A stretch of 64,000 bases of DNA from a virus, in IMG/VR virus record IMGVR_UViG_3300049827_000271, positions 1 through 64,000 of that record, one strand, 5' to 3'. A model generated the notes under the pieces. The model did no database searches, was not told where the DNA came from, and saw only the letters and a program-made list of their open reading frames with translations. A program made the translations under genes and the position numbers. Each line of letters starts with the position of its first letter. Position 1 is the stretch's first letter. Shown here piece by piece: positions 11,583 through 58,641 of the stretch.

Positions 11583-11881
11583 AAACGCGCGAGCTTGATC
11601 GGATGCACGCAGTCCACCGCGAGTCGCAAGCGATAGGTGAGTTTTTGGATTGGCTGCACAGCGAAAAACATGTGGAATTCCACATCGCGCACCAGCACTC
11701 CGATGCTTGTGGGTTTATTCGGCACAGCGGTCGAGGGGAGATATGCGGTATGCGTGAAGATGACACCGTTCCGTTTACCTACAACACCGAGAAACTTCTG
11801 GCCGAGTTCTTTAGCATTGACCTGTCCACAATAGAGCAGGAGCGGAAAGCTCTGCTCGCAAAGATACGGGGTGAAGCATGA
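11579..11881 (+). CDS. Conserved phage protein (SQAIGEFLDWL...LLAEFFxID)
   Basis: GTGA coupling; AGGAGG upstream. Confidence 0.75.
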   Translation: MKTRELDRMHAVHRESQAIGEFLDWLHSEKHVEFHIAHQHSDACGFIRHSGRGEICGMREDDTVPFTYNTEKLLAEFFSIDLSTIEQERKALLAKIRGEA

Positions 11882-13044
11882 TCGAAATCACCAAACAAGA
11901 TGTCCACTTCCGGCGCGATCCGACTACTCGAAAGTGGAAGGCGGGTGTGTACTCCTACGCCGAGAAGAAACTGGTCTGGCAGGACACGGCGACCAGCAAC
12001 TACACGCTGGCCCAGAAGTACGCAGCCGACCACAACCTGCGCGACCTCAACCGGAAGGAGCGGCAGCTTGAATCCGCCGACCTGATCGCCAAACGGTTAG
12101 GCTGCGAGGACAAGGAGACGAGCCTGCGCCTGCTCTGTGCCAAGTGGTACGAGTGGCTCAAGACCGGGCGGGCCACCAGCGGCGGACTGTCCCAGACCCG
12201 GAACATGGTCCGACAATGGCTGCGCTACTGCGGGATTGAGGACGCCGAATCATCGGCCATCAACCCGGAGTGCATCCACCAGTTCGTCAACGATGACAGC
12301 CGGGTCCGGGCGGCCACGCGCTCCGCCCGTTACTTCTCCATCCGCAACTTCTGCGACTGGATGCACAAGCGCGGGTTTCTCCAGCGCGATTTCACGGATG
12401 AGATCAGGGTGGACATGTCCAGGATGGACCAAGACCAACTCATGCCGGTCGAGCCTCGTGTGGCCACCGAGGACGACCTGAAGAAGCTGCTCGCCTTCGC
12501 CGACAAGTCCGGCCACGGCTGGCCCAAGTTCTTCGCCGTGGCCGCCCACATCGCGTGGCATACCGGGCTGCGCTATGGGGACATCGCCACCTTGGAGTGG
12601 AGCAACATCAACTTCGAGCGCGGGCTGATCCGGCGTGTGACCAGGAAGCGCAGCAAGTATGTTGAGGTTGAGGCTCCGCCGGAGGTCATGCAACTACTGG
12701 TGCAACTGCGCGCGGACAGCAAAGAAGAGCGGTTTGTTTTCCCAACCCAAGCCACGAGTTACCGCAACCCCGACACATCGCGGGCATGGTCGTCCCGGTT
12801 CGCTTACGTCTCGCAGACATCAGGGGTGGGGCACTTGGGCTTCCATGCCTTTCGCCGGGCTTACTGCCAGCGCAGATACGGCCAGTTGTCCGAGCCGAAG
12901 CCGGAAGGATTGTTCAACCGAGAAGCCCTGGCCAAGATTGCCAAGGAGGTTGGCCACTCCAGCATCAACCAGACGCTGGGGTACATGCCACAACTGACAC
13001 GCGCCGCACCGCCCGGCGCAGAGTCGGGGTGGGGGAAAACTTGA
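11878..13044 (+). CDS. Tyrosine recombinase / integrase
   Basis: TGLRYGD (R), TRK (K), FHAFRR (HxxR), VGHSS (H), TLGY (Y); core-binding region upstream. Confidence 0.92.
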   Translation: MIEITKQDVHFRRDPTTRKWKAGVYSYAEKKLVWQDTATSNYTLAQKYAADHNLRDLNRKERQLESADLIAKRLGCEDKETSLRLLCAKWYEWLKTGRATSGGLSQTRNMVRQWLRYCGIEDAESSAINPECIHQFVNDDSRVRAATRSARYFSIRNFCDWMHKRGFLQRDFTDEIRVDMSRMDQDQLMPVEPRVATEDDLKKLLAFADKSGHGWPKFFAVAAHIAWHTGLRYGDIATLEWSNINFERGLIRRVTRKRSKYVEVEAPPEVMQLLVQLRADSKEERFVFPTQATSYRNPDTSRAWSSRFAYVSQTSGVGHLGFHAFRRAYCQRRYGQLSEPKPEGLFNREALAKIAKEVGHSSINQTLGYMPQLTRAAPPGAESGWGKT

Positions 13045-13300: not shown

Positions 13301-16300
13301 TTAGCGCACTCCCGGAAGTCTGGCAACCGCACTCCGGCTCCTCCTCGCGGGGAGCCGGATTTTTTGCGTACCCGTCCGGCGTAATTTCGGCATTCTCACC
13401 GAGCGCACATGGGCCGCAGCCGCCGGACGGCGCGTGGGAATTCTGACCGACGACCGGCGTGAGGCGGGCATGGACATAGATGGCGTTGCGGAACGTCCAA
13501 CGCCAGCCCTTGGCGCCGGCACGGAGACGCGGCCCACCGATGGGGCGCGCACGCCAAAGCTTGGACCAGCCGACGATCCGGCGCTGAGCGAAGGCAGGCG
13601 CACTCCGCCAGCGTGCGGGCGCGGCAGTCCGCGGGCGCCGCCAAACGACATGCCTCCGCCCGTACCGCCCATGCGTCCCAGTCCGGTCGAAGTTTTTTCC
13701 TCCGACGGTTCCATGCTTGGAATAGAGGCTGATCCACCTCCCCCGCCTCCGGCAGAGCCGCGTTCCTGCCTGACAAATTCACGCGCTTGATGCCCGGTGG
13801 ACTCGGCATAGGTGTTAAACGCCTCCTCCGCCTTCATCACCTCCGCGCGCTGGTCCGAGGACATCCGGCCCAAGATCGTCCCCCGCTCCTCCAAGGTGGG
13901 CGCTCTGCCCAGCACGGCCTGCCACGGATTACGTGACATAACCGAGGTGTCGAATGATTTTGCGGCGGCGTCATACTCGATGTTCCGCTTCTCCATGATC
14001 TTCTTGATCCCCCGTTCGCGCGCGTCCAGCATCCCCGTGGTATTCCCCAGCATCATCCAGTTCACCGCGTCCTGCGCCTCTGCCGATGTGATGGACGGAC
14101 GGTAAGTTCCTCCGACTTGGGTGCGCTTGTCGATGTCCTGGCTGAATCTGTCGATGTTGGCTCGGGCATTCGAGTTCTCCACCATTCCTGCCTGTAGATC
14201 AGTGTGATTCAGGATCAGCTTGCTGTTCGGAACCCAACGTGATACCAGCCTGGCCATCTCCTGTGAGATGTCTCCGCCTTGGTAAAGCGTGCGCCATGCG
14301 CGCGGGATGTCATTGGCCATCTCCACCGCGAACAGGTTGATCCCGGTTCCGCCAAGGCCGCGGGACGGCTTGCTCACATCGAGTGCGCTGTTCAGGATTC
14401 CGGACGACAATGGCAGGACGCTGCCGGCCATCAACATCATATACTTGAAGGCGTCCTCTGGATTCTCCGCATCCCACGCGCGGGGCGTCCGGTTGCGCGA
14501 ACCATAGACATACTCCGACAACCACGCGGCCATTGGCACAATCGCCAGACCGCCCAGCACGGAGGCGGTCAGCAGGTAGTCCGCAAACTTGGCCCCCGCT
14601 TTGATTCCTGCCGCGCCGCGATTGCCTTTCGTGAAGATAGCGGACGTGCGCAGAATGTCCTCGTTCTGCCACAGCACCCAGTTCATCAGCGTCAGCGTGG
14701 ACCGGCCCAAGCGGTTGCGCTGCGATAGGGTGGGGCGGTTGCTGAATCCGGATTTGCTCCGGGCTTGGGCCAGATCAAAGATGTATCGGTTCTCCTCCTC
14801 CTTGGTGAACAGGTTCTCCAATCCCGGATCGGCGGCGCGTTTGGAGCGCGCGTAGTAATCAAGGAAAGCGCGGTCGATGTTGATGTCACACCCCTGCATT
14901 CGCTTGCGGAATTGCAGTGCCTCATCCGGCTTGGCCCCGCGGCCCAACAATTCCGCCGGGGTCAGCACGGTTGTCTGCGGGTCCATTGGCAAACCCAGCG
15001 CCTCGCGGGCAGCCAGAACCTCGCGGGCGCGCATGGTCATGTCTTTGATGCGTCCATGCGCCTCCGAAACCGTGGCCAGCATGAGCAGGTTTTCCGAGTG
15101 CTTCATGCTCGTCAGTCCAACCCCTTGCAGGACATGCCAAGCTCCACGACCAACAGCAGTTGATGCCCTCCACAACCCTTTTGCAGATGCCAGGCGCAGG
15201 CTTGGATCAGCCTGCTGGTCCAAGATTCCTCCGCTGGCGAACCATGTGTCGATGTCGTTGCGCAGAAGTTCGCGCATGGTCCACTGGCTGGAGATGCCAA
15301 GCTCCTTGGCTCTACGCCATTCCAAGGCGGCCCGCGTGGCGGCACTGACAGACTTTCCGGTCATGGACGAAAGTTCATTCGCATTGGCCTCAATCGCCCG
15401 CTCAAAGTCGGGACCGAACTGCTTGCGCAGCGCGTCGTCACTCTTGATCACGGCGAGCAGCCCGCGCACCAACCGGCCTCCATGCTTGGTAAACTCCGCC
15501 GTGGCATACGCGGCCTTGCTCAACCCCCATACGCCAAACATCCACTTGCGGTGTTCGCCCATTGCCACTCCCTGCCGGTAGATGTCGATGGCTGGGGCCA
15601 GGATATTCACCACTTGCGGTTTGATTGCGGCCAGGACCGCGGAGGCCGCCCTTCTGACCGCCCCGCCGAACGTTCGGGCCAACCTCGGCTCTAGCGGAGA
15701 TTCCATCGACACGTAATCGCGGAGCGATTTCAGGTCCGAGTCGATCATCCGTTTGATCATCACGGCGTCCGCGTAATTCAGAAGACTCTCTCCATTCACC
15801 TGCTCTTCCCGCGTCTGCGCATTGGCCTTTTCCAAGCCCTTCGGAGATTGCGTCTCGTACCGGACATCCCAATCACCGATCTGCCTGCCCAAGCTGTCTC
15901 GCAGGTCGATCAGTGAATTTGCGTAGTTGACCAGATAGGTCTTGGTAATCCCCCAATCCAGCGCGTGGACAGAATTCTCGCTCGCCAGCGCATACTCATA
16001 GAAGTCGGGAGGCAGCGTGCCGGATTCGCGCGGTCTGGTCATAAACGAGCCTGCGCCCATGACCTCTGTGATCGGCCTCTCCCCCGGCTTGACCGATGGT
16101 GATTCCAGTGGAAGCTCCCCCCTGGCCCCACGCAATAACTCATGCTCCAATCGTGATTTTACCTCATCGCGGGTCATCCAGTCCTTAGGGTCCGGGCGCG
16201 TCCGCACCTCGTCCACAATGGCGTCCAGGAGTCCGACGTAATTGGATGGCTCCGGCCTGCCGGCGTCGAATTGCCGGGCCAGGCTCAGGTATTCCATCAC

Positions 16301-19300
16301 CAGCGGGGAACGCATGGCCATCCGGTAATGCTCGTGCTTGAACCCCCAGAGATGCGATAGCACACGATCCAGATGCTTCTCGATCACGGGCGCAAGCTGG
16401 CCATTTTTGGCGGCGAGCGTTTGCAGGCTGAGCGCGTAATCGTTGGCTTCCGGGTTGATCCGTCTGGGCAACATGCCGCTCGTCAATTCCAGCGCCGGAC
16501 GTTGCACGGTAATGCCGCCAATCTTCTCGGTGATCAATACTTCCGGGCGTCCGAACTTTTTCAGTTCCCGGCCCACCCCGGCCTTGGCCTTGTACAAGGC
16601 AAGCTCGGCCTGGACGGCGGCCATGTCCTCCGGAAGCACGGTGATACCTCGGTGGGCTTTTCCAACCGTGAGCGGCTGCCCGTGCGGATATGCCATGCTG
16701 TGGAGGATGGCGTTGCCAATCTGGTCCTCCCATTCCTGCGGGGAACGGAAGCCGTGGGCGCGCATGGCCTTGATCGTGGCTTTACGATTGCGCGTGGTCA
16801 CATTGCGCGACCCCGCCTTGCCACTGACGGCAGCGGTTTGTAATTGCTCAATAACCAAGTCCACGTCCCTGGCCGCGTTTGCCGCTTTCAACCCAAGCAT
16901 GTTCCGCCCCAGCCACGGCGCGATCTCGCGCGTTTGTCCAAAGAGTTCCACCAAGTATCCTGGCAGCCATTTGGCAATACGCGAGCTTCCCTGTTCCGTC
17001 GCCAAAGCTTGGTGGGTCAGCCGCTCTTCCAATTCCTGCGCCCTCTCCCGGTAAAACGAGGCCCGCATAGGATCGCTCTCCGGGTTGTCCGCGTACTCAC
17101 GAAACCAGCGGGCGGCCTTGCGCGCGTTGTCCAAGTCCGCCTTCATCCCGGACTTGTCCCATCCCCCCGGCAGTGAAACGGTATCCTGCTGGCCCTTGGG
17201 CTGGTTTGGATTCTCCAAGATGCGGACACCTTCCAAGGTGTAGTCGGCTCCGCCCAGATTGGAGGTAATGCGACCTTTGTTAAATTCAGGATCGCTCTGC
17301 ATCTGCCAAAACCCGAGCTCGGACTGGGCGCGCTGGTAGTTGCGCCAGAATTCCGTGCCCGGACTGAGCATGTTCGTCTTCAGAAAAGCCGCCGCGTCCT
17401 CATGGGCCTTCAGCTTGTCTTGCAGCCTGACCGTTTCCTTGCTGGGAGCGCCCGCGCGAATCTGCTGCATCTGCTGCCAGAACGGCTGACTCTGGGACAG
17501 GATGTATTTGACTCCAGCCGCAACATCGGTCCCCGTCTTGAATTTGTTGGCCAGCGCCCAAGCATCCCATCGGTTCACCAAGTCCGCCGTGGTGGACGGC
17601 CAGGTGGAGGCGTTCAATGTGTCAATGAATGCTCCGACCGTTTCCATGACCGTGTGTGATTTTGTCATGCCGTTCAGAATATCCAGCATGTGCTGCGCTT
17701 GGATGGATGCCGGAGTCGGGCTGTTGGCGGCGGCGTTGACTACGTGTTGCAGGGCGGCCCTCTCTGAATCGCGCACATTGCGCACCCATGATCCGCCGTC
17801 CTTCGCGCGGTCGCTGGCGATGCTGTCACGAACCTTGCGAGTGTAATAGTCGATCTTGTCCGGGAGCTTGATCTGAGCAAAGTCCACCGCCAGCGCGGCG
17901 TTGGTCAGGAAGCTCTTCATTGACACGTTAAACACGTTTGGATTATCCGCCCCAAGAGCCGCGTTGCGCGCCTTTTCCACAATGTCCACGCCATGTGGGA
18001 GCGGCCTGCCGCCTGAGTTCAGGTAGGCGTTGTCAATCTCGCTTCGAGCCAGCGCGTGCGTTTCATGCAGGTACTTCATTCCGCGCAGGATGGACTTTAC
18101 AGGGTCCGGCAATGCGTCGTAGAGCGGCTTGAGATACGCCATTGGCTCAATGGACAGCCAGGTGTCAACGCGCGACTCATACTTCTCGTTCTCGGTCCTG
18201 AACGGATCGGTCATGGATTGCTGCTTCCACTGTCCGGGCGTGCGCGCCGCCTGTCGTGTAATCACATCGCCCGCCTGTTCCGGTCTGGTGTCTTGCACAC
18301 GCAACTCCGCCAGCTTCTCAGAGACAGCGCGGGCCGCCGCCCGTTCCGCCTTGCCCCGTGTCATCTGCTGGCCGGAGAACATGTCCATGACCCGGCTTAC
18401 CAGCTTGCCAAACCAACTGCGCCCCTTCCATGCCTGGACCAGCGTGTCCACCCCGCGTGTGTCCAACTCCGCGCGATCCCCTGTCGTGTATCCTCTCTCG
18501 GCCATGTCCGCCTTGATCTGGTCGATCTCTTCTGGCTTCAGCGTCTTCAACTCTTCGGCCAAACCCCCAAACTCCGTCACCGCATGGGCCGCCTCATGCT
18601 CCAGCGCGCGTGCCACGCTCTCCGCATCCGGCAGGTTCTTGGCGTTCAGCCTGACCTCCAGCACCTTTCCCGTCTTCGCGTCGATGTCCACCTGCGCGGA
18701 CCACGGCTCGTCGCTCTCTACGATCTTGATCAGTTCGGGAGATTTTCCACCGAAGACCTTGGCAGCCTCGGAGGCCACAAGATCAATCCCCATGCCTCGG
18801 CCAATATCAGCGTCGGGAGCGATGGAATGACGAGTCACCAGACCGCCCGGCTTCATGCCAAGCCGTTCCGCCGTCTGCCGCACAGTGGCCGGCATGGTTC
18901 CCACCACCTTCTCTCCATTGGGACCAACCCAAGTCTTGCCGAAAGGAATCTGCTCCGGGAGCGGGGGTGCCTGCGAGGCGAGCCATCGCTCGTACGCTGA
19001 TACCGCTTTCTGCTGTGGCTTCGTTTCCGCCGTCACGGGAACGGACGGCTCCGATTCTTTTCCAGCCAGTGCCAACTCCAAATTCCGCTTGGCCCGATTG
19101 AACGCGATCAAGCTGTCGCCCGTGCGCGTCTCCTTCCACACCCGCTGCGTGCTCTCTACATCGTTACGGAGCTTGCTAAGTCGCTGCTGTTCGGTTGGGA
19201 CGTGACGAGCGCGTTCATTGGCTGTTTCAATTCTGATGAACGCTCCAGTGGGGCGGCTTGTTTGGATTTCAACTCCCGGTCGGACTGCTCCGCCAGCAGG

Positions 19301-22300
19301 GAGTCCGCCAAGAGCCTTCTCGATACGCTCGAACTCATTGTATTTTTCGAGGATGGTTTGGGCAAAGTATTCTTTCTTGCCTTTGGTAGAGTGATAGGTT
19401 TCATAAATATCGTCAGCCACAGATAGCACTACTCGCTCGGCCTCTGCATTGGTGCTTGCGCCTTCTTCTTGCAGTTTCAGGTTGACCAGATTTTTGACGG
19501 CGAAGATGAGGCGCTTAATCTCGCTTGGATCGGTCAACCCTCCAATCTGTTTTGGAAGCTGCTTGCGCTCAACCAAGCCATTCCGTTCGGACGCGAACAC
19601 GCGGTCGAACTCCTCTCGGCTATTTCCAGCCGAAGGGCCGTAAGCCTTCATCAGCAGGTCAACCTCTTCCGGCATGGCCGGGCGAGCTTTTGTTCTTCTG
19701 AATCCGTCGCCAACATCGTAAGCCGGATCATCCAAGACTGTCTCAACGTCAGCGATCTCACCTTCAGCCGAAGCATCCGTAGGCTGCTCAATAGCGCGCG
19801 TCACCCTCGGCTGTTCCACCGCCTGCCCTTGCGCCTGCAACTCCTCGCGCTTGGCGTCGATCTTCTTGGCGAACTCCATGAACGCCGCCTCACTCTCAAA
19901 CTTCTGGAGGAAACCGCGGCGCGGCTCGTCCAGGAGCATGGCGGCCATGAGCGTGTAGCGGTGCTTGCCGTTTTCCGGTCCTCCCTTGACCACGCGCTCG
20001 TCATTGACAAACAGGTCGCGCCACTTGGAACTGTCCCTTGGGCTGCGCTCGCGCTCCGCCTCATTCTCAGTCGTGGTCTTCTTCCACTTGGCCGGGTCCA
20101 CGATCATCACGTCCGTTGCCTTCGGGTAGGCTCCAGCGACATAAACCGCTCCAGTCTGATTGTCCTTGAACACGGCGGTCATCCGTGTGGTCTTCGCGCT
20201 GACGCCGCTCGTGCGGGCCATCCCGCCGAAAATCTTCGGCAGGTTAGGCGCGTCATCCTGGAGGTTGACACTGCGGAAGACCGGAACGTTACTGGCCCGC
20301 GCCACCGCATCCATGATAGGCTGCGCCTGCTGGATCGTCTCATCCATCATCTGCTGGACGTGTTCTACGACTTCCTCCGCCTCCAAGTGATGCTTGTCCA
20401 CGTACGCATCCAGCGCCGCTTGGTCTTCTTTGGACAGCTTGCCGCGCTCGCTCGCGCGCAACAGCCCCTCCATGCGCGAGGCTTCCATGAACTGGTTGCC
20501 AAGCCGGTGCAGCCGTTCGTCGTTGGTGACATCCAGACCTGATTCGTCCGGCTGGCCCCGCTTGCTGAGTTTGCGATGTTTTTTCCAGATCAGGTCGTGC
20601 AAGACCTGCGTGAAATTCTCACGACTCAACCGGACGGACTGACCGTTCTCATCTAGCGATCCTCGATACCACCCCAGATCGTTGACATCCAATTCTCCGG
20701 TGTCATTGCGGAACCGGCGGGCGTAGATCGGTTTGACGATGTGGTTGAACAACTCCGTCTGAAGCTTGCGGATGGACCATGCGCGCTCGGAGTAGGCTTC
20801 ACGGTCTTTCCGGGTGTTCCGCTCGTCCTGCTTGGCGGCCTCGCGCGTGCGCTGGTCGCGTGCGAACCGCTCGGCAAATGCGAGGGACGGAGCAATTCTT
20901 TCGCGGGCCGCTGCGCGCTCCTCCTTGGTCATCTTCTTGGAGAACTCGACTTCGGGATGGACCAGCTTGTGGAGTTCCAAGCTGTCTTGGTAAATCTCTT
21001 TCTGCCGGTTTAGCAAATCGGTATCCCGTTTCACACGCTGTTCCAGCACGGAGCGCAGAACAGTGCGGGACTTGAGTTTCTGATTTTCCTCGCGCGCCAG
21101 TTCAAGCAGCTTTTCCTGCATCTCATGGAACGTGCTGGCGCTGTCCTTGGTTTCCACCGGGATTTCATCGCCGTTCTTTTTGGCTTCGTCGATCCTGGCT
21201 TTCTGCGTCAAGCGGGATTCTCCAAACGCGGCGGAAGCCCGCTTGATTTGTTCCACTTGCAGGCGCAGGCCCGCGCTTGTTCCGCGCGTCTTCTCGTCCA
21301 ACTCCTTTTCCAGTTTGGACAGCTTTTGGGCCAGCGACTTCTCCTGTTTCGCATTCTCAGGATTGGTATTCTCGATCTCGGCAATCCGCTCTTGCAGTGC
21401 CGCCACTTCTTTGTCCAACTTCGCTGAAGAGCCTTCGGTCTGAATCTTTATCTTGGCTGCCGGCTCCGCGTGGATGACCCTTGAATCCTCTCCCTTGGCC
21501 GCCATGTCATCCAAGAGCGACTTGTTGGAAGCAATCGCCTGTTCTTGGGCTTGGATTCCAAGCCCAATGCTTTCATGCCTAAAGCGTTCCAGTGGATCAG
21601 AGAGATCGAGCGCACCGCGCAGCATCAATTCCTGAGCCCGCGCAGTGGCGAATGTCTGCGGCTGAACGACGGCAAGCCGCGCCTCATCTTCTGGCGTTCG
21701 GTTCTTCTTATTGAATAGAAACTCAAATTCCCGCTCCACCGGAAGAGATGCCAGTAACTCCTGTATGCGCGCCCGGTCTTCGGGTGTCGGTTTTTTCTTG
21801 CGTGCCAATGTCCGCAACTCCTCAAGGTTCTCCTGCTCTCGCGTCTTCGGCTCCCAGTTTGTGGCCGCTAAATCTTTCAACTTCTCCCGATAGCCATGAC
21901 CAAGCGCATCGCCAGCCACGTTGGCCTTCTGTGATTTTTCCGCCAACTGCTTACTGTCCAGTCCGGTGACGATCTCCGCAACCTTCTGCACAAACGCATC
22001 ACGCGCGGTCAGCCAGTGGATCGGAATGTCCTTCTCCTTCAGATAAGTCGTGAACTGCTTGGGCTTGACCAAGTGCAGGTCGCGCTTGCGCGAGGACAGG
22101 AAATCATGGGCGGCATCGAACACGCTCCGCTGGTAGTCCGGCTCCGGCGGCGGGGCAGGAACGGTCTTGACCCCAGGCGGAGGCAGGTCTGGGCTGGGAG
22201 ATTCCTCCGCCTCTTCTACAGGCTTTGACTCCTCGGGTTTGGCGGCAGGCTCTGGCGTTATCGCGGCTTCAGTTTTTGGCGCCTCCACGGTGGGTGGCGC

Positions 22301-24190
22301 AGGCTTTTCTTCCTTCAGGCTGGAAACGGCAGGAGTTTCAGCCAATGCTGGCGCGGGCGCGGATGGGGCAGTCGGTACTTCAGGCTGTGTTTTCGGTGCG
22401 GTTGGAATTGAAATCCTAGCCTCCACCTTGGGCTGTGCTTCAAGTAGCGCGCTCGTTGTTGTCCCTGGGGAGGCTTGGGAAATTGGATACTTTACGCTCG
22501 TGGGAGCGGACGCAGATTCCTTCGAGATCAAAATCTTCTGCTCTGCCGTACGAAGTGCTGGCGGAGTTGATAGCGCTTCATGCAGAGCAGGATCGGCAAT
22601 GCGTGGACGGCCAACTCTTGACACCTGGATAATCAACGGAGCCGATAGCGTGGCGACCGCCGGAGCTGGTTGCGCCAGCTTGATGTCATCAGGTGGTTGC
22701 AGGACATCGGCTCCAAATGTGTAGAGTCCATCTTGCGTCTTGTTCAGAAGCCCTGAATCAACCAGTTGTTGCAGGCTGTCTTTCGGTTTGAATCCGATGA
22801 TCTTTCGCACCGCCTCATCAGTGAACCATCCATCCGGAACAGACCCGGACTCCAGGATGCGCTGCCTAATCTCTGCCGCGGCATCCAGCGTGCTCAGAAC
22901 TTCTTGGCCGGTATCCGCACGGGTTTTCGCTTCCCGACTCGCTGCGGAAGCTTCAGTCCCTTGCTCGACTGGTCCCACTCCTGGACGTTCACTCCCTGCT
23001 TCTGGAGCTTGCTCTGGTTGGTGTGAAAGTATCCCCTCTGTGCTGCGCTGACGTAAGGCATCTGGCTGCTCTCTTTCTGTTTGAAGTTGCTGCTCAAAAT
23101 TACCTAGCGCCCGAGAGCGCTTGGCGTAATCATCTACCTCGGATCGCAATTGCGCGATCACGTTTGGATCATACCTCCGCGGTGTGGTTGGAATCCTTGT
23201 TCCGCGTATGGCGTGCAGCGGCAAGGAGACTGCGTGCGGCCCGGCAAATAACGTGGACAACCCCAACATGCTCTCCGGAACACCTTCTCCAACAGGCTGT
23301 CCCTCAACGATATTTCCCGATCCTGTAGATGCAGCCCCAAGGATAGCCCCCTCCGCCGCCTTTGTTCCGGCCTCTGCAAGATCGCGCGTCAAATTAACAG
23401 AGCGTCTCGATGCAGCCGCTTCCACGCCTCTCTCCAACAAGCTCTTCGATGCGGAGTCCACCGCCTTTCCAACAAGCCTGTCTGCGTACTTCTTCATCAC
23501 CGGAGGAAGCAGCGCCCAAACTGCGGCCTGCGTCATTCCTCCCGCGATGGCCTTGGCGATGACCTTGGAAGCCGCGGCCTCATCGGATAACCCGGACTCG
23601 CGAAGGGCGTCGAACTCTTCTTGGAAATCATGCGCGCCCACCGTTTGTGCGGCGATGGTAGCCGGAGCCGCCGGACCTGACATTACAATCGGGGCCAAGC
23701 CAAATATGCCCTTCAAAGCCTGCCCAACTACAGGTTCACCTTCCCGCTCTGATGCCCATTCTTCGGCACGCTCGCCTTCTTTTGCGGCTATTCTTCCAGC
23801 CTGATACAGCGGGTTCTTCTCCAGTGCGGCAGGTAACTGCTCTGGGTGCATTAGATATTTTGCAGTCTTGTCCCACCGACCTGTCAGGTATGGAAAGTAT
23901 CCGCCTTCCTCAAGAACGGCAGCGCCTTTAGCCAAGGCGCCAATACCCCTTGCGGTTGCGCCAGCAATATCAGCAACCGCGCCCTTGAATGAAGGCAATA
24001 GCTCCTCGCCCTTTGATTCTGGGAATTGTTGCTCCGCCCATAGCTCAGCCCTTCGCCTCGCCGGCTCGAATGACCTGTCAAGCTCGGCGTCCGCAATCTC
24101 AACCGGAGAAGTGTCTTCCCATTTTGGAACTGGCGCCTGACCTTGATCTACCGGAAGCGTGTCCTCCCATGCTGGGGCATTAGTCGGCAT
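13301..24190 (-). CDS. Giant (3629 aa) internal virion / ejection protein with a zincin-like HEAAH motif
   Basis: Last of three internal-protein genes; N-terminal WEDT repeats, Pro/Ala linker, coiled coils, HEAAH at 18584-18598, hydrophobic segments near the C-terminus and an Arg/Gly/Ser-rich tail. Confidence 0.85.
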   Translation of the reverse strand: MPTNAPAWEDTLPVDQGQAPVPKWEDTSPVEIADAELDRSFEPARRRAELWAEQQFPESKGEELLPSFKGAVADIAGATARGIGALAKGAAVLEEGGYFPYLTGRWDKTAKYLMHPEQLPAALEKNPLYQAGRIAAKEGERAEEWASEREGEPVVGQALKGIFGLAPIVMSGPAAPATIAAQTVGAHDFQEEFDALRESGLSDEAAASKVIAKAIAGGMTQAAVWALLPPVMKKYADRLVGKAVDSASKSLLERGVEAAASRRSVNLTRDLAEAGTKAAEGAILGAASTGSGNIVEGQPVGEGVPESMLGLSTLFAGPHAVSLPLHAIRGTRIPTTPRRYDPNVIAQLRSEVDDYAKRSRALGNFEQQLQTEREQPDALRQRSTEGILSHQPEQAPEAGSERPGVGPVEQGTEASAASREAKTRADTGQEVLSTLDAAAEIRQRILESGSVPDGWFTDEAVRKIIGFKPKDSLQQLVDSGLLNKTQDGLYTFGADVLQPPDDIKLAQPAPAVATLSAPLIIQVSRVGRPRIADPALHEALSTPPALRTAEQKILISKESASAPTSVKYPISQASPGTTTSALLEAQPKVEARISIPTAPKTQPEVPTAPSAPAPALAETPAVSSLKEEKPAPPTVEAPKTEAAITPEPAAKPEESKPVEEAEESPSPDLPPPGVKTVPAPPPEPDYQRSVFDAAHDFLSSRKRDLHLVKPKQFTTYLKEKDIPIHWLTARDAFVQKVAEIVTGLDSKQLAEKSQKANVAGDALGHGYREKLKDLAATNWEPKTREQENLEELRTLARKKKPTPEDRARIQELLASLPVEREFEFLFNKKNRTPEDEARLAVVQPQTFATARAQELMLRGALDLSDPLERFRHESIGLGIQAQEQAIASNKSLLDDMAAKGEDSRVIHAEPAAKIKIQTEGSSAKLDKEVAALQERIAEIENTNPENAKQEKSLAQKLSKLEKELDEKTRGTSAGLRLQVEQIKRASAAFGESRLTQKARIDEAKKNGDEIPVETKDSASTFHEMQEKLLELAREENQKLKSRTVLRSVLEQRVKRDTDLLNRQKEIYQDSLELHKLVHPEVEFSKKMTKEERAAARERIAPSLAFAERFARDQRTREAAKQDERNTRKDREAYSERAWSIRKLQTELFNHIVKPIYARRFRNDTGELDVNDLGWYRGSLDENGQSVRLSRENFTQVLHDLIWKKHRKLSKRGQPDESGLDVTNDERLHRLGNQFMEASRMEGLLRASERGKLSKEDQAALDAYVDKHHLEAEEVVEHVQQMMDETIQQAQPIMDAVARASNVPVFRSVNLQDDAPNLPKIFGGMARTSGVSAKTTRMTAVFKDNQTGAVYVAGAYPKATDVMIVDPAKWKKTTTENEAERERSPRDSSKWRDLFVNDERVVKGGPENGKHRYTLMAAMLLDEPRRGFLQKFESEAAFMEFAKKIDAKREELQAQGQAVEQPRVTRAIEQPTDASAEGEIADVETVLDDPAYDVGDGFRRTKARPAMPEEVDLLMKAYGPSAGNSREEFDRVFASERNGLVERKQLPKQIGGLTDPSEIKRLIFAVKNLVNLKLQEEGASTNAEAERVVLSVADDIYETYHSTKGKKEYFAQTILEKYNEFERIEKALGGLPAGGAVRPGVEIQTSRPTGAFIRIETANERARHVPTEQQRLSKLRNDVESTQRVWKETRTGDSLIAFNRAKRNLELALAGKESEPSVPVTAETKPQQKAVSAYERWLASQAPPLPEQIPFGKTWVGPNGEKVVGTMPATVRQTAERLGMKPGGLVTRHSIAPDADIGRGMGIDLVASEAAKVFGGKSPELIKIVESDEPWSAQVDIDAKTGKVLEVRLNAKNLPDAESVARALEHEAAHAVTEFGGLAEELKTLKPEEIDQIKADMAERGYTTGDRAELDTRGVDTLVQAWKGRSWFGKLVSRVMDMFSGQQMTRGKAERAAARAVSEKLAELRVQDTRPEQAGDVITRQAARTPGQWKQQSMTDPFRTENEKYESRVDTWLSIEPMAYLKPLYDALPDPVKSILRGMKYLHETHALARSEIDNAYLNSGGRPLPHGVDIVEKARNAALGADNPNVFNVSMKSFLTNAALAVDFAQIKLPDKIDYYTRKVRDSIASDRAKDGGSWVRNVRDSERAALQHVVNAAANSPTPASIQAQHMLDILNGMTKSHTVMETVGAFIDTLNASTWPSTTADLVNRWDAWALANKFKTGTDVAAGVKYILSQSQPFWQQMQQIRAGAPSKETVRLQDKLKAHEDAAAFLKTNMLSPGTEFWRNYQRAQSELGFWQMQSDPEFNKGRITSNLGGADYTLEGVRILENPNQPKGQQDTVSLPGGWDKSGMKADLDNARKAARWFREYADNPESDPMRASFYRERAQELEERLTHQALATEQGSSRIAKWLPGYLVELFGQTREIAPWLGRNMLGLKAANAARDVDLVIEQLQTAAVSGKAGSRNVTTRNRKATIKAMRAHGFRSPQEWEDQIGNAILHSMAYPHGQPLTVGKAHRGITVLPEDMAAVQAELALYKAKAGVGRELKKFGRPEVLITEKIGGITVQRPALELTSGMLPRRINPEANDYALSLQTLAAKNGQLAPVIEKHLDRVLSHLWGFKHEHYRMAMRSPLVMEYLSLARQFDAGRPEPSNYVGLLDAIVDEVRTRPDPKDWMTRDEVKSRLEHELLRGARGELPLESPSVKPGERPITEVMGAGSFMTRPRESGTLPPDFYEYALASENSVHALDWGITKTYLVNYANSLIDLRDSLGRQIGDWDVRYETQSPKGLEKANAQTREEQVNGESLLNYADAVMIKRMIDSDLKSLRDYVSMESPLEPRLARTFGGAVRRAASAVLAAIKPQVVNILAPAIDIYRQGVAMGEHRKWMFGVWGLSKAAYATAEFTKHGGRLVRGLLAVIKSDDALRKQFGPDFERAIEANANELSSMTGKSVSAATRAALEWRRAKELGISSQWTMRELLRNDIDTWFASGGILDQQADPSLRLASAKGLWRASTAVGRGAWHVLQGVGLTSMKHSENLLMLATVSEAHGRIKDMTMRAREVLAAREALGLPMDPQTTVLTPAELLGRGAKPDEALQFRKRMQGCDINIDRAFLDYYARSKRAADPGLENLFTKEEENRYIFDLAQARSKSGFSNRPTLSQRNRLGRSTLTLMNWVLWQNEDILRTSAIFTKGNRGAAGIKAGAKFADYLLTASVLGGLAIVPMAAWLSEYVYGSRNRTPRAWDAENPEDAFKYMMLMAGSVLPLSSGILNSALDVSKPSRGLGGTGINLFAVEMANDIPRAWRTLYQGGDISQEMARLVSRWVPNSKLILNHTDLQAGMVENSNARANIDRFSQDIDKRTQVGGTYRPSITSAEAQDAVNWMMLGNTTGMLDARERGIKKIMEKRNIEYDAAAKSFDTSVMSRNPWQAVLGRAPTLEERGTILGRMSSDQRAEVMKAEEAFNTYAESTGHQAREFVRQERGSAGGGGGGSASIPSMEPSEEKTSTGLGRMGGTGGGMSFGGARGLPRPHAGGVRLPSLSAGSSAGPSFGVRAPSVGRVSVPAPRAGVGRSATPSMSMPASRRSSVRIPTRRPAAAAHVRSVRMPKLRRTGTQKIRLPARRSRSAVARLPGVR
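22894..23061 (-). CDS. Nested +1-frame 55-aa basic protein (MPYVSAAQRGYF...EWD...LPQRV) inside the giant gene
   Basis: ATG at 23061 preceded by AGAAAGAGAG; resembles small phage proteins of the MPFKSxAQ..W..LPE.V type as I recall them. Confidence 0.7.
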   Translation of the reverse strand: MPYVSAAQRGYFHTNQSKLQKQGVNVQEWDQSSKGLKLPQRVGKRKPVRIPAKKF

Positions 24191-25256
24191 AACGAATGAA
24201 CTGTTTTGTTACCGAATCGAACATGGCAGTCCTTCCATCCTTCAATAATCTTGGAACTTCAGTGGAAGCTGACGGAGTAACTTCGTTTTCTTTAGAAACA
24301 TCCTCAGCCGCAGGGTGCAGCATGTTACTACCTTCATCTGGCCTGAAGTAAGAGCCTCTCGCTTTCGGCGCAGAATAGACCGGAACGAACTGAGCCTTAT
24401 TACCTTGGAAAACAATTCGACGCTGCATGTCCTTGTCTCCTTGCGCGAACTTCATTGCCGCCATTCTGTTCTCAAGGGCTGTCGCATATCTGGGAGTTAG
24501 ATACTTGTGGAGTTCTTCAACGCTGCCAGTTGGGTACGATCCTCCTGGAGCCAATGATTTCAGCACCCCTTCTTCTCTGAGTCTTTTCTCGTACCGGTTG
24601 AAGTAATCACCTCTTCCCTCTGTAAAAGGAAACCAGGGAGCATTGTAAAAATGAGGAGTCTCCGACTCAGTTGGTTTGATTGTATCCGCAGTGAGCTTGG
24701 ACCCAAGGTTTATTTCATCCGCAATACCAGCCGCTCGTGCATCCAGATTCCTCTCCCGCTCCACTTGCGGCTTTGAGGTGAGCACGGCAATCTTCGCCTC
24801 TTGCGGCGACAGTCCAAGAGCAAGCAGTTCCTGCTCGTCTGGATACCATCCTCCAGCAGCAATCGCCTTCTGCACAGAAGCGATGTCAGCCATTCCAGCC
24901 CGCTTCTCCTGAATCTTTCGCGCCGCCTCCTGTCCGGCCAGCACGCCTGCCCAGTACTTGGACTGTTCTTCCGCCTGCTTCTTGTGTGTTTCCGCCTGAT
25001 CCAACAGATAGCTGTGCTGCCAGTCCTCTGACTCACGCCGCTCCTGCTCCGCGCGCAGGCGCTCCGCCCGCTGCCATGCGCTTTCGTCGAGCGCGCGGGC
25101 GTTGGCAAAGTATTGCTGCGCCTGCTGGTTGGCGATCTGCTGGGCGGCCATGTCGTTTTGGACGGCCCGCGATTCTGCGGCCACCATCCGGTTGACGTTA
25201 GCCTCGTTGACGGAGTTGGTTAGTTGGGCGAGTTGTCCGTAGTCGGCGGCGATCAT
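24180..25256 (-). CDS. Putative internal virion (ejection) protein
   Basis: Gln/Ala-rich coiled-coil N-terminus; position before the giant gene. Confidence 0.75.
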   Translation of the reverse strand: MIAADYGQLAQLTNSVNEANVNRMVAAESRAVQNDMAAQQIANQQAQQYFANARALDESAWQRAERLRAEQERRESEDWQHSYLLDQAETHKKQAEEQSKYWAGVLAGQEAARKIQEKRAGMADIASVQKAIAAGGWYPDEQELLALGLSPQEAKIAVLTSKPQVERERNLDARAAGIADEINLGSKLTADTIKPTESETPHFYNAPWFPFTEGRGDYFNRYEKRLREEGVLKSLAPGGSYPTGSVEELHKYLTPRYATALENRMAAMKFAQGDKDMQRRIVFQGNKAQFVPVYSAPKARGSYFRPDEGSNMLHPAAEDVSKENEVTPSASTEVPRLLKDGRTAMFDSVTKQFIRYAD

Positions 25257-27159: not shown

Positions 27160-29277
27160 TCACTGCCTGCGAGCCAGCAGCGTTGCTCCAGACACCATAC
27201 ACGATCCACCGAGGGCTGGCAACAAATTGGATTTCAGGTCCGACTGGTTGGAGAGCCTTCCGATCACCAGTTCAAAGTAGAGGTAGCGGCCCGAGGCGTA
27301 GAGTTCCCACTGGGTCGCGCTGATATTTGGACTCAGGTTGCGCGCCATGTACTCGGCCCCGCGCATGAGTTGCGGGCACTTCAGGTACTTGCGCTGCTCC
27401 CTCTGCCAGACGACCGCGCAGGCATCGGCCTCCAGCGGATTGACCGGAACGCCGTGTCCACCGATCTGCATGGCCGGGTCAACCGGGGAGTATGACTGTC
27501 CCACCCGCAGGCTGACCACGCACGGATCAATCTGGGCCTCCGGTAGCTGGTCCAGGATAAATCCGTGCAAGATGGTCTGCGTGTCCGCAAACGAGATCGG
27601 GCCGCTGGCCATGATCGAGTAGTAGCCGCGTGATTCAAAGTGGCCTACGAACGCGGTATAGTTTCCATCGCCATCCAGATCATCCGCCGTCCGCTCGGTT
27701 AGGAAGTTGGTGCAGGAATCGTACGCATACACGTCGTCAATCTGCTTCAGGCACCAGTCTTCGGCATGTGCGAAAATGAACAACTGCTTCTCGTTGCACG
27801 ACCCGCACAGGTCGTCCGTCCGCAGGTTCATCCGGGAGGCGGCTGATCCAATGTCCGGCTCCACCTGAGTCCAGTCCTCCGTCTCCAAGCCATCAATGGT
27901 CACTGTGTCTGCCGTCAGGAACACGGAGGGCGGATTGTCCGTGCATCCGCCACACCGGAAGAGCGCCTCCTTCTGCATGGACTCCTTCAAATCGTTGGTG
28001 GAGCAAATGCAGTTTCCCAGCAGCCAGTCGCGGAAGGTGGAGCGCGGGTCGCGCCGAAAAATCCCGTAACAGGATGCGGCGAAGTCACGCTCGTACACGT
28101 TCCGGTGAACCATGTCGAAGACCAATGTGCGGCTCGGCTGGCTGTGGCCAATCTCCGTCCATGACAGATAGATTTCCTTCGTCTCCGGGTGGTAGCCGGC
28201 GACGTGCGGCTCGCACTGCTCGGTGTCAATGCTGTCGAAGATCATCTTGCTCGCCAGGTGCATCCACTCCTCGCGCCGTGGGATCATGTCGTAAAACGGA
28301 TTCAGCGAGTAGATGCCATCGCGGGAGGCCCACACCAATTCCTCACCCGTGGATACCAAGGTGTTTGGATAGGCCAGGCAGCGGTCCCCCTTCGTCGATT
28401 CATAGACGATGGCGAACTCGATGGGCTGGTCCGCGTTCCCGGTCGCAGTCCCCCTCCAGATGCGCTGGTTGGTATAGACCACGAGCGCCTCACCAAAGGT
28501 GATCAGGCGGATGACCCGCTCGTAACTGTTGAGCATTTGTTCATCGGCCAGTGACGCCCCGGTCGTCGAGTCGATCTGGGCCGGGTCAAACTGGGTGGGC
28601 GCAAACCTGCCGCTCCAAACGATGGCGTTCTGCGTGTAAGCCCCTCCAATCGTGATCCCGCCCAATATGATGATGTCCTTGAACGCGCAGATGGTCTGGG
28701 CTTTCTCCAAGTCGATGGCATCCAAGTCCGGGATGGGCTTGAGCGCAATCCCGGTCGCTGGATCAATCGGGTCGTCCAACGTGTAGGACATGGGTTTGTC
28801 CACCCCGTTGGTGAAGACGATGGTGTCCAGCACTTGGGCGCACTGCCAGCGCACATCCAATCCAAATGCGTCCGTGACACCCATGCCATCGGCGAGCACG
28901 CGCCAAGCCCCGGTGGACTCATTGAGTTGGTAGATGCGCGACTTGGTGCCGACAATCAGGTAACGGCTTCCGCTTGTGCTCACCGCCTCGTAGATCAGGG
29001 TTATCGGTTCCCGAACACTCCCCGCCTGGCACAGCGGAAGAAGCTGATCATGCAGGTCTTGGTCATTGTAGTCCGCGTCGGCCCCGCCTTGGCAGTCGTA
29101 GCCGTATTCTCCGTAGAGCAGCCGGCGGTATCCGCGTGCCCGGCGCAGCTTGTTCGTATCCGGTGTCCAGAAGTTCAGGCGGCGGCGCCAAGAGCCAAAG
29201 GCCAGCAGGTCCGGTGGGGTCCGGACATCCAGCGGCCCGGTCCAAGGCTTGAGCGGAATGGGTTTGCGCAGGCTCAT
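27160..29277 (-). CDS. Tail nozzle / packaged-DNA stabilisation protein (beta-propeller type)
   Basis: 705 aa, beta-rich; IVFTNGVDKP, IVWSG, LVWASRDGIY; typical podovirus position. Confidence 0.7.
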   Translation of the reverse strand: MSLRKPIPLKPWTGPLDVRTPPDLLAFGSWRRRLNFWTPDTNKLRRARGYRRLLYGEYGYDCQGGADADYNDQDLHDQLLPLCQAGSVREPITLIYEAVSTSGSRYLIVGTKSRIYQLNESTGAWRVLADGMGVTDAFGLDVRWQCAQVLDTIVFTNGVDKPMSYTLDDPIDPATGIALKPIPDLDAIDLEKAQTICAFKDIIILGGITIGGAYTQNAIVWSGRFAPTQFDPAQIDSTTGASLADEQMLNSYERVIRLITFGEALVVYTNQRIWRGTATGNADQPIEFAIVYESTKGDRCLAYPNTLVSTGEELVWASRDGIYSLNPFYDMIPRREEWMHLASKMIFDSIDTEQCEPHVAGYHPETKEIYLSWTEIGHSQPSRTLVFDMVHRNVYERDFAASCYGIFRRDPRSTFRDWLLGNCICSTNDLKESMQKEALFRCGGCTDNPPSVFLTADTVTIDGLETEDWTQVEPDIGSAASRMNLRTDDLCGSCNEKQLFIFAHAEDWCLKQIDDVYAYDSCTNFLTERTADDLDGDGNYTAFVGHFESRGYYSIMASGPISFADTQTILHGFILDQLPEAQIDPCVVSLRVGQSYSPVDPAMQIGGHGVPVNPLEADACAVVWQREQRKYLKCPQLMRGAEYMARNLSPNISATQWELYASGRYLYFELVIGRLSNQSDLKSNLLPALGGSCMVSGATLLARRQ

Positions 29278-56127: not shown

Positions 56128-57513
56128 ATGAATCCAACCTCGACATCTCTTGTCCGTGGAGGCTCCCAGATGGGGGTCGCCGGACTGCGCGCCACACTCA
56201 ACGATCCCAACGTGCAAAATCGCATGAGGGAAGTGCTGCGCGATAAAGCGCCCGCCTTCTGCTCGTCGCTGATCACGATCTCCAACGACTACAAGTTCCA
56301 GAATGTGGAGCCGCACTCCATCCTGGGATCGGCCATGATCGCGGCCACGCTGGACCTCCCTATCGAGAAATCGCTCGGCTTTGCCCACATCGTTCCCTAC
56401 GGGAGCAAGGCCCAATTCCAGATCGGGGCCAAAGGGCTGGTGCAACTGGCCCTCCGTTCCGGCCAGTACAAGAAGATGAACGCTTTTTGCGTCAATCGCG
56501 ACGCCTTTGGCGGATACGACGAAGTGGGCGACCCCGTCATCCTCTGGGACAAGCTGGATGAAACCGAGGAAATCGTGGGCTATGCGTTTGCCTGGACGCT
56601 TGTGACCGGATTCACCAAGATCGTCTATTGGACGAAGGAAAAGGTGGAGCAGCACGCGGCCAAGTATTCCCAAGCCTACCGCTACGGAAAACAGAATCCG
56701 TCCAAGGCCGACTCCCCGTGGTTCACCGCCTTTGACCAGATGGCGCTCAAGACGGTCATCAAATCCGGGATCACCCATTGGGGGATCATGTCCGTCCAGT
56801 TGCAGACCGCGGTTCGCATGGACAACGCGGCGGTCGCCGACATTGATGCCCCTCCTGAGTATATCGACAACACAAATGGGGTCCATCAGATCAAACAGGC
56901 GACCGTTGATTCAGCCGTGCTCAACCCTGCTGGGAACCCGGAAGATGATCAAGTTCCAATGGTGGAAGTGGCGGTCAGCCCGGAAGTCGGATATGCGCCT
57001 GCCGCACCTCCGCCTAGCACGCCTCCTCCGCCTCCAGTTGCACCGCAACCAAAAGTGGTGCCCATGCCTGCTACCAAACCGCAACCAGCACCCGTCACTC
57101 CCACGCCCGTTCCCGTGGCGTCCCCGCCTCTCGCTCGTCCAATGGGCCGTCCTGCCAATCGCAAGCCAGAGCCTGCGCCCACGCCTGCGGTGGCAGCGCC
57201 TGCACCCGCCCCTGAAGCGCCTTCGGAACATGAACAGGCTGCGCCATCCCAGCCTGTCTCATCCACTCCAACGCCGCCAGAAGAGCCAGCCTCGTCCCCG
57301 CAAGAAGAGTTGGCCGCCGTCTTTGAGAGGTGTGACTTCGACGACTACAAGGGCTACTTCCAGACCACTGATTTCGCTGTCTTCAACCAGATCAAAGAGG
57401 CCAAGACATGGACTGAACTCCCCACAGAACATTGCAAAGACGTGCTCTCGCGTCCACCTATCAAGGGGAAGACGCTGGTGATGAAGATTATGTCGGTCAT
57501 CTCTCCTGCCTGA
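56128..57513 (+). CDS. recT: RecT-family single-strand annealing protein with Pro-rich extension
   Basis: SILGSAMIAATLDLPI..LGFAHIVPY..AQFQIG.KGLVQLALRSGQY; SPW..FDQMALKTVIK. Confidence 0.92.
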   Translation: MNPTSTSLVRGGSQMGVAGLRATLNDPNVQNRMREVLRDKAPAFCSSLITISNDYKFQNVEPHSILGSAMIAATLDLPIEKSLGFAHIVPYGSKAQFQIGAKGLVQLALRSGQYKKMNAFCVNRDAFGGYDEVGDPVILWDKLDETEEIVGYAFAWTLVTGFTKIVYWTKEKVEQHAAKYSQAYRYGKQNPSKADSPWFTAFDQMALKTVIKSGITHWGIMSVQLQTAVRMDNAAVADIDAPPEYIDNTNGVHQIKQATVDSAVLNPAGNPEDDQVPMVEVAVSPEVGYAPAAPPPSTPPPPPVAPQPKVVPMPATKPQPAPVTPTPVPVASPPLARPMGRPANRKPEPAPTPAVAAPAPAPEAPSEHEQAAPSQPVSSTPTPPEEPASSPQEELAAVFERCDFDDYKGYFQTTDFAVFNQIKEAKTWTELPTEHCKDVLSRPPIKGKTLVMKIMSVISPA

Positions 57514-57514
57514 T

Positions 57515-57709
57515 ATGCGCGTCATCATTCTATATGGTTCCGAGAAGAAGCTGACCGGCTCCCATAAACGGGTTACATCCAAGAAGCATCCGGCCTACTA
57601 TGTGCGCGCGGAGTTTGCTCCAAAAACATGCACTCAAGATGTGCTCGCGCTAGATCGTGCAAAGGCGCTTCCGGGAGAAGTATTGCTGAACACGGAGGAG
57701 ATCGCATAA
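57515..57709 (+). CDS. Small hypothetical protein
   Basis: Fills the gap; TAATG coupling. Confidence 0.55.
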   Translation: MRVIILYGSEKKLTGSHKRVTSKKHPAYYVRAEFAPKTCTQDVLALDRAKALPGEVLLNTEEIA

Positions 57710-58641
57710 TGGACTTCGACACCAGCAATCTGAATCAATACGTAGGTGCCCACGCGGGCTGGCCATTCGCGGACTACGCCAAGTTTCCGGCGGTAAACGC
57801 CAGCCTGCTAAAGCGGCTGGCCGATACCAACCCGTTGAAAACCCAGCACTCGCTGACCGAACCGGAAGAGGAAGAAGTGCCCGAATACTTCATCATCGGC
57901 ACCTGCGTTCACCAGCTTGTGCTGGAACCGGATCGTCCATTGCCAGCAATGGCCGTTCCACCCAAGCAATATCCAGCCCCAGCCGATTGCTCGTTGGTCA
58001 AACAAAAGAAGGTCGCCGCCGGGGACATGATCGACTGGTCTGGAAACGCGACCTATTGCAAACAATGGATTGCCGAGCAAAAGGCTGCGGGCAAGCTTGT
58101 GTTGAGCGAGCGCGCGTACGAGGCCATGCACGGGATGGCCCGCGCGATAGCCCGGCACAAGACGGCCCGGCGCTTCTTCGAGATGCGGGACGGCAGAAGC
58201 GAACTCACGCTCGTCTGGCAGGACAGGCAGACCGGGCTGTATTGCAAGGCCCGCGCTGACTGGGTTCCGCCCGCGCCGTCCACAGACCTTCCGGACATCA
58301 AAACCTCGCGGGATGCCAACCCGAAATTCTGGTCCAAAACCGCATTTGACCTCTTCTACCACATCCAGGCCGCGCACTATCTAATCGGCTGGAATACGCT
58401 GAACGGACCAACGGATACCCGGTCGCAATGGCCCATCATCTGCGTAGAGAGCGAAGCCCCCTACGACGTAGTGGTGTTTCACCCGGAACCAGAGTGGATA
58501 AATGACGGGGCAGAAATGCGCCGCCGCCTTCTGGAGTTGTGGGCCGACTGCATCATGCACAACACCTTCCCAGGTTACGCAGAAGACCCAATGCCGCTAG
58601 TCCTCCCAGATTGGCGCAAGCGCGAGAAAGGAATGCTGTGA
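57709..58641 (+). CDS. RecE / exonuclease VIII-like PD-(D/E)XK nuclease
   Basis: GTCVHQLVLEP, SE, CKARADW, DIKTS, YHIQAAHY. Confidence 0.88.
   Translation: MDFDTSNLNQYVGAHAGWPFADYAKFPAVNASLLKRLADTNPLKTQHSLTEPEEEEVPEYFIIGTCVHQLVLEPDRPLPAMAVPPKQYPAPADCSLVKQKKVAAGDMIDWSGNATYCKQWIAEQKAAGKLVLSERAYEAMHGMARAIARHKTARRFFEMRDGRSELTLVWQDRQTGLYCKARADWVPPAPSTDLPDIKTSRDANPKFWSKTAFDLFYHIQAAHYLIGWNTLNGPTDTRSQWPIICVESEAPYDVVVFHPEPEWINDGAEMRRRLLELWADCIMHNTFPGYAEDPMPLVLPDWRKREKGML

Follow-up and report, generated by a model that had tools for sequence, protein, structure and literature searches.

The DNA analysed here, called the window throughout, is a stretch of 64,000 nucleotides (nt) comprising positions 1 to 64,000 of the IMG/VR virus record IMGVR_UViG_3300049827_000271, which is the genome of a temperate phage, 74.4 kb long and about 97% complete. 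Its minus strand carries an open reading frame (ORF) of 3629 codons (24190..13301; the giant ORF), and inside this frame, on the same strand, lies a second ORF of 55 codons (23061..22894; the small ORF). The original prediction, which was made from the sequence without database searches, held that the small ORF is a real gene hidden in a linker of the giant protein. That central inference was supported by every comparative check that was run, which covered the protein family, the recurrence of the arrangement in other genomes, selection in each frame, the off-frame stretch of the giant protein and the output of gene callers.

The embedded ORF and its protein family

The small ORF starts with the minus-strand ATG at 23061, whose T doubles as the last base of an Asp codon in the giant frame, and ends with a TGA at 22896-22894. 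Its offset of 1129 within the giant ORF places it in the +1 frame of the latter; both frames are open, and the short frame is contained wholly within the long one, the two forming an embedded same-strand pair. When the start codon, the 55-residue peptide and the +1 offset were rechecked, the translation was identical to the one first reported, and the giant frame over the small ORF reads DALRQRSTEGILSHQPEQAPEAG..., the linker that had been described. The positions of these and other features are collected in Table 1. At the small-ORF site the assembly is a single contig with a depth of 111 and no indels or variants, from a run that may be the record's own source. A sequencing frameshift was rejected as the origin of the small ORF.

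The giant gene contains six ATG-started ORFs of at least 55 residues in its +1 frame, four in its +2 frame and 22 on the opposite strand, and because there are six in the +1 frame, the length of the small ORF alone is not beyond chance. The GC content by codon position is 0.63/0.46/0.69 over the whole giant gene. Within the overlap in the window it is 0.58/0.40/0.77 when counted in the small frame and 0.77/0.58/0.40 when counted in the giant frame; the usual coding GC pattern of the genome is carried there by the small frame, not by the giant frame. The nested copy is the only copy of the small family in the 74.4-kb record.

A BLASTP- or HMM-type search, which the original prediction had proposed, was run as a phmmer search of the 55-residue peptide against 1.84 billion (1.84e9) representative proteins, and it returned 354 matches at E ≤ 1e-3, including 25 at E ≤ 1e-10. 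The best match had an E-value of 1.1e-12, with 60-70% identity across residues 1-47 in an alignment that begins at Met-1 of the members. Most of the matches were proteins of 50-110 residues in which the match begins at residue 1, so that stand-alone homologues of the kind guessed at in the prediction exist by the hundred and begin at the same Met. The family consensus is MPYKSxAQRxYFxANxxKLExQGVxVxEWxxASKGxKLP, followed by a Lys/Arg-rich tail. The window peptide keeps all 15 conserved positions (M1, P2, S5, Q8, F12, L19, G23, V24, V26, E28, W29, S33, G35, L38 and P39) and shares the other traits of the family, namely an ATG at the first family residue, a length within 45-68 residues and a Lys/Arg-rich tail after the LP motif. 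Judged by these matches, the sequence content of the small ORF is far beyond chance.

Scans of the peptide against Pfam, PHROGs and NCBIfam identified no family model, and tblastn searches of 50,697 GenBank phages with the window peptide and with an AT-rich member gave nothing significant. The small family is also present in bacterial chromosomes, and it seems to be confined to uncultured phages and metagenome-assembled genomes (MAGs). Where the source databases give names to its members, the name is only 'hypothetical protein'. A word-index protein search with the peptide returned a single match, because the sensitivity of that tool is limited. AlphaFold2 with the family alignment confidently predicted short helices at residues 6-14, 16-21 and 26-33 followed by an extended basic tail (pLDDT 86). 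A profile search of the PDB gave a match to MatP alone, which was non-significant (E 0.28), and a Foldseek search with the model gave no match in the PDB and, in BFVD, weak matches that were all unnamed small phage proteins. Protein P0121 (702 residues, ten tandem repeats) matched residues 16-49 only, at 36% identity; it looks unrelated, and its score is probably driven by the repeats.

Recurrence of the nested arrangement and selection in each frame

The viral sample consisted of 82 loci, 80 from a scan of IMG/VR with the family alignment and two from a single-sequence scan, and the bacterial sample consisted of 45 loci from genome assemblies (MAG contigs). In 27 of the 82 viral loci a longer open frame encloses the whole of an ATG-started ORF of 45-68 codons. 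The shortest of these host frames has 427 codons and is truncated by the contig end; the longest exceeds 4042 codons. The phase was constant in all 27, with the giant frame equal to the small frame +2, which makes the small gene +1 relative to the giant, just as it is in the window, and an ATG stands at the family's first residue in every one of the 27 nested copies. The position of the small gene within the long frame varies from about residue 50 to about residue 2600. Nesting of the same kind was found in four to five of the 45 MAG loci, including L094 (a host frame of 3942 codons), L099 (2036), L107 (1666) and L124 (3105). The question raised by the original prediction, whether the +1 ORF stays open in other giant genes, is thus answered at these viral and MAG loci, where it is open, ATG-started, conserved and in the same phase. 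BLAST places 19 of the viral giant proteins in one cluster and the others in eight or more groups, and it detects no similarity among these groups or between any of them and the window protein. Domains recognised in other host giants include DUF7178, DUF3293, an L5 gp82-like domain and histidine phosphatase.

That gene callers would miss the nested gene had also been predicted. In an exact look-up in a collection of 15 billion proteins, none of six nested small proteins, the one from the window included, was present, as against all four of the stand-alone proteins looked up.

Over the small gene, the giant frames share a stretch that can be called the shadow of the small protein. In all nested loci, which comprise 26 giant frames other than that of the window, it reads D/N/Y/H-A-V/I/L-Q-E/K-x-S/G-T/A-E... 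and continues as a Gly/Glu/Thr-rich stretch. When the 3629-residue protein was compared by tblastn with all the viral loci, only residues ~341-432 matched, with a weak upstream extension in L067. The suggestion that DALRQ- or NAIQE-like stretches in other giant phage proteins are the off-frame shadow of the same gene therefore proved correct, since the stretch occurs in all nested giants and is the only part of the window giant shared with them.

Codon-position variability was calculated as the mean pairwise nucleotide difference among 26 nested copies, with their first 40 codons compared. By small-frame codon position it was 0.26/0.15/0.37, which is the wobble pattern of a coding frame, and the third position of the giant frame (small position 2) was the least variable. 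Among 29 nested copies, the small frame had a mean amino-acid identity of 0.71, as against 0.47 for the giant frame and 0.54 for the unused frame, and the synonymous share of nucleotide differences was 44% and 14% in the small and giant frames, respectively. These identities and synonymous shares indicate that the small protein is conserved while nested, and that the giant-frame peptide is not; on the per-frame selection test outlined in the original prediction, the small frame is under purifying selection (71% versus 47% identity, 44% versus 14% synonymous). At small-frame position 3 the GC content was 0.77 in nested copies versus 0.49 in 36 stand-alone copies, and the variability was 0.37 versus 0.61. 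Synonymous choice in the small gene is limited by the giant frame.

The requirement for the giant frame to stay open was assessed by redrawing the synonymous codons of each small protein from the codon usage of its own locus. At 23 of the 27 nested loci the giant frame was open in fewer than 0.2% of the redraws (P below 0.002); it was open more often in the GC-rich window (19% of redraws), L001 (6%) and L082 (5%). Taken with the per-frame comparisons, these results support purifying selection on the small frame and, on the giant frame, only a constraint to stay open.

Probable expression of the small gene and rival explanations

Internal initiation at the small ATG, on the mRNA of the giant gene, is most likely the way in which the small protein is made, we infer. 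The ATG is kept universally in nested copies, and initiation there is therefore favoured over frameshifting. The purine-rich run that had been noticed ahead of the ATG at 23061 was found again as an A-/purine-rich segment (Table 1), and a comparison of the upstream regions of 22 window genes showed that the leader of the small ATG resembles those of the phage's other genes. The leaders at other nested loci have GAGGAG-type sites in the GC-richer L004 and L082 and are A-rich in AT-rich loci. A scan for sigma-70 promoters and terminators near the small ORF found them at a frequency not above chance, and the RNA fold around the small start was unremarkable (z = -1.6).

Most genes of the window phage lack Shine-Dalgarno sites and have A-rich leaders, suggesting a host that does not rely on such sites. 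Inside the giant ORF, at 23106-23121 on the minus strand, a GC-rich hairpin with a T-run after it precedes the small ATG by 45 nt. Both other frames contain stop codons there (TAG and TAA), and the element could be what is left of a former gene end with its terminator; the scan count of such elements was not above chance.

The explanation that we prefer, with a probability of about 0.8, is that the small ORF is a real embedded +1 gene of an old and widespread family, which has its own ATG start and over which the giant frame need only stay open. In many uncultured phages, a giant multi-module ORF would read through the small gene in the -1 phase relative to the small gene. The small frame would carry the conserved protein, and in the giant frame the same nucleotides would encode an acidic, flexible linker that joins modules. 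Translation of the small protein would begin internally on the giant mRNA, at the small gene's own ATG.

Several observations weigh against this explanation. The counts of nested loci are not independent because 19 of them belong to one giant-protein cluster. In L006, L013, L046 and L049 the nesting depends on where the long gene begins, because no more than about 45-55 codons of the long frame precede the small gene, and the true start of the long gene could be downstream of it. Close relatives of the giant gene were found neither by blastn against phages nor by a scan of viral contigs or a search of metagenome contigs; tblastn over the fetched loci gave none beyond the shadow, and a word-index protein search with residues 1-700 gave none. 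Consequently, selection in the window's own lineage has to be inferred from the family and from other lineages. For the window locus alone the stay-open signal is weak (P = 0.19), and the Shine-Dalgarno match ahead of the small ATG is weak. A search with the DNA pattern of the window's N-terminal variant identified one metagenome contig, in which the domain heads an acidic protein of 181 residues and is not nested.

The small gene might instead have been swallowed by a fusion of neighbouring genes and no longer be translated, its intact look reflecting the recency of the event. Three of the points just given speak for such a history, namely the ease with which both frames stay open in a GC-rich genome (P = 0.19), the failure to find close relatives with continued selection in the window lineage, and the weak Shine-Dalgarno site. 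It is nevertheless improbable, in view of the intact state of all 15 conserved positions, the ATG and the normal stop, the coding GC pattern kept in the small frame, the status of the small ORF as the only family copy in the genome, and the persistence of the nested state elsewhere under purifying selection through deep divergence. Slightly less probable still is a frameshift product, in which ribosomes starting at the small ATG slip -1 to join the small domain to the C-terminal 3200 residues of the giant protein, or ribosomes on the giant frame slip +1 to join its N-terminal 376 residues to the small domain. This was considered because the small domain also occurs in frame in longer proteins. 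It heads proteins of 181-1194 residues, such as P0151 (1194 residues), P0109 (997), P0137 (732) and a 730-residue ORF in L018, with cargo that includes NUDIX (two cases), DUF5872, DUF6321 and glycine-zipper (membrane segment) proteins, and in P0146 it is internal, at residues 329-373. The A-runs that Lys-rich tails make in some loci would also be compatible with slippage. However, no canonical X XXY YYZ heptamer is present in the small frame of the window or of 17 of the 27 nested loci, nor is there a conserved position for one, and the small ORF always ends after the normal 45-68 residues. Moreover, all 27 nested copies retain the ATG although +1 entry would not need it, and the internal copy in P0146 has Ala in place of this Met. 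A conserved programmed -1 site, of the dnaX or the G/GT type, was rejected for want of a conserved slippery heptamer.

A chance ORF in GC-rich DNA, with a merely compositional likeness to the family, would accord with the frequency of ORFs of such length in the alternative frames of the giant gene and with the lack of any match in Pfam, PHROGs, NCBIfam or GenBank phages. This explanation deserves almost no credence, given an E-value of 1e-12 against 1.84e9 proteins, 60-70% identity from Met-1 and the same nesting in about 30 other loci; the family matches, the nested recurrence and the conservation of the ATG refute it.

Origin, known systems and a possible role at DNA ends

Stand-alone copies of the small gene often abut large genes. 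They lie directly after ORFs of 1035-2603 codons in L016, L031, L058 and L030, and others lie directly before genes of 600-870 codons, portal genes included (L064, L071). One module, about 1000 residues long, comes after the small gene in the giants of L008, L029, L032 and L038 and before it in L016, L024, L031 and L058, where the small gene stands alone, and within the large giant cluster the order of modules around the small gene is reshuffled. The simplest reading is that the small gene marks module junctions and that the flanking ORFs were repeatedly fused over it, always in the single phase that synonymous choice among its Lys/Glu/Gln-rich codons makes possible. That the conserved 150 nt themselves promote recombination is speculation. 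The tree of the 45-residue core was poorly resolved, with the starred branches forcing at least two changes of nesting and the best tree needing 13, and because this tree is too weak the number of nesting origins is not countable.

In the Rz/Rz1 system of phage lambda, the o-spanin gene is embedded in the +1 frame of the i-spanin gene, and Rz1 is a lipoprotein with a lipobox Cys. The arrangement described here is similar in that a short phage gene with its own start lies in the +1 register inside a longer gene of the same strand, and in its conservation in many phages, where the short gene may be embedded, overlapped or separate. Rz1 works with the product of the gene that contains it. The window peptide is not known to have such a tie to the giant protein, and it has no Cys, signal sequence or hydrophobic leader; identity as an Rz1-type o-spanin lipoprotein was rejected on the lack of a lipobox Cys and of a hydrophobic leader. 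A further difference from Rz/Rz1 is that the embedded gene here is old and conserved and the long frame, a host ORF of 1000-4000 codons, is the newcomer within the overlap. What is new relative to that system is an ancient embedded partner in a giant multi-module ORF, in an arrangement that recurs in unrelated giants and is systematically unannotated. Gene callers do not allow embedded genes, which are considered rare in tailed phages.

Overprinted genes of small phages and viruses, such as B in A, E in D, and K of phiX174, have been reviewed (PMC8227390, PMC6195259). As in classical overprinting, one DNA is read in two frames, of which one is conserved and the other is of low complexity and probably disordered. 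Unlike the classical case, in which a new short ORF is born in an older gene, here a long ORF extends over an older short gene. The tailed-phage genomes concerned measure 40-77 kb, and compaction is no obvious driver there; apparently the flanking modules were fused.

Giant multi-domain 'polyvalent' phage proteins were reportedly described by Iyer, Burroughs, Aravind and co-workers in about 2017. The host ORFs resemble these in being single frames of 1000-4000 residues made of shuffled modules; the window protein itself has no match in Pfam or PHROGs. To our knowledge, the embedding of a gene at module junctions in polyvalent proteins has not been reported.

One conserved family thus lies concealed, always in one phase, within dozens of giant ORFs that are unrelated to each other, where annotation has missed it, and the shadow, D/N-A-V/I/L-Q..., serves as a simple annotation marker for such giant genes. 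The arrangement also provides a clear natural case of a long ORF that has grown across an older short gene, rather than of a new gene born inside an old one. Finally, it draws attention to an uncharacterised small protein whose gene stands between those for LigD and Ku in bacteria.

Ku and LigD form the bacterial operon for non-homologous end joining (NHEJ), and this pathway is also used by phages, an example being the Ku encoded by mycobacteriophages. In nine Bacteroidota species loci, the small gene begins one to a few bases after the LigD stop, and Ku is the next gene in seven of them; in the other two the contig is too short or no Ku is within reach. The LigD of these operons is full, with phosphoesterase, ligase and Prim-Pol domains. 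In L085 and L128, LigD precedes the small gene and no Ku is in reach; in L117 the small ORF is broken after seven codons. In three Acidobacteriaceae loci (L087:10001-11065, L093 and L109) the small gene is located 57-80 nt upstream of Ku on the same strand, and a gene for a Y-family polymerase lies just upstream in L087, on the other strand. Most other Acidobacteriaceae copies have unrelated neighbours (AcrB, TonB-dependent receptors) and are not near Ku. G001 and G003 have one Ku each, which lies beside the small gene. The small family is rare, being found in two of 301 sampled genomes of one bacterial phylum.

At these loci the cellular members of the family stand directly after LigD or before Ku; in the window's phage no Ku or Gam was found. 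The literature searched described no third NHEJ component of this kind. The best functional lead is a role at DNA ends, suggested by the position of bacterial copies between LigD and Ku, and it is a reasonable hypothesis from gene neighbourhood that the small basic protein acts at DNA ends or on Ku/LigD. The in-frame N-terminal fusions to varied cargo are the other lead to function. A broader and rather doubtful proposal is that the family is a DNA-end factor tied to Ku/LigD end joining, that phages make this factor from a start hidden in a giant gene, and that the ends of the incoming genome may be its target: it may protect or circularise them, or else block their processing by the host. In the same proposal the conserved 150 nt would double as a homology patch at module junctions, where unrelated giant genes recombine, and modules would for this reason be shuffled around the small gene. 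Whether there is a third component of bacterial end joining, and whether phages exploit or counter it, can now be tested directly.

Table 1. Coordinates of the features in the window, followed by features at other loci
Feature	Position	Strand	Description
Embedded small gene	22894..23061	-	55 codons plus TGA, +1 frame of the giant ORF
Dual-coding stretch	22892..23062	-	Giant residues 377-433 (DALRQRSTEG...), off-frame 'shadow', acidic Gly/Glu/Thr-rich linker
Putative internal initiation region	23062..23086	-	25 nt, A-/purine-rich, AAAGAGAG at -15..-8 of the small ATG
Giant host ORF	13301..24190	-	3629 aa; last gene of the minus-strand late operon
Integrase	11878-13044	+	Just beyond the 3' end of the giant gene
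Large terminase	47790-49346	+	
RecT	56128-57513	+	
Exonuclease	57628-58641	+	Pairs with RecT
LigD-small gene-Ku operon	L125:914-4618; also L088, L117, L120, L123, L129		Bacteroidota MAGs, same order
In-frame N-terminal fusions, in addition to P0151, P0109 and P0137	P0093, P0145, P0064, P0038, P0025; L018:8001-10193; L130:877-1422		

The giant protein had no match in Pfam or PHROGs. Virion or ejection protein is a candidate label for it, the sole pointer being its place in an operon with a phrog_3287 gene. The minus-strand operon that the giant gene closes includes this gene for a virion structural protein (27160-29277), and the start of the giant ORF overlaps the stop of the upstream gene at 24180..25256. 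The translation of the giant ORF contains one HEAAH motif and a long basic tail rich in Gly, Ser, Arg and Pro.

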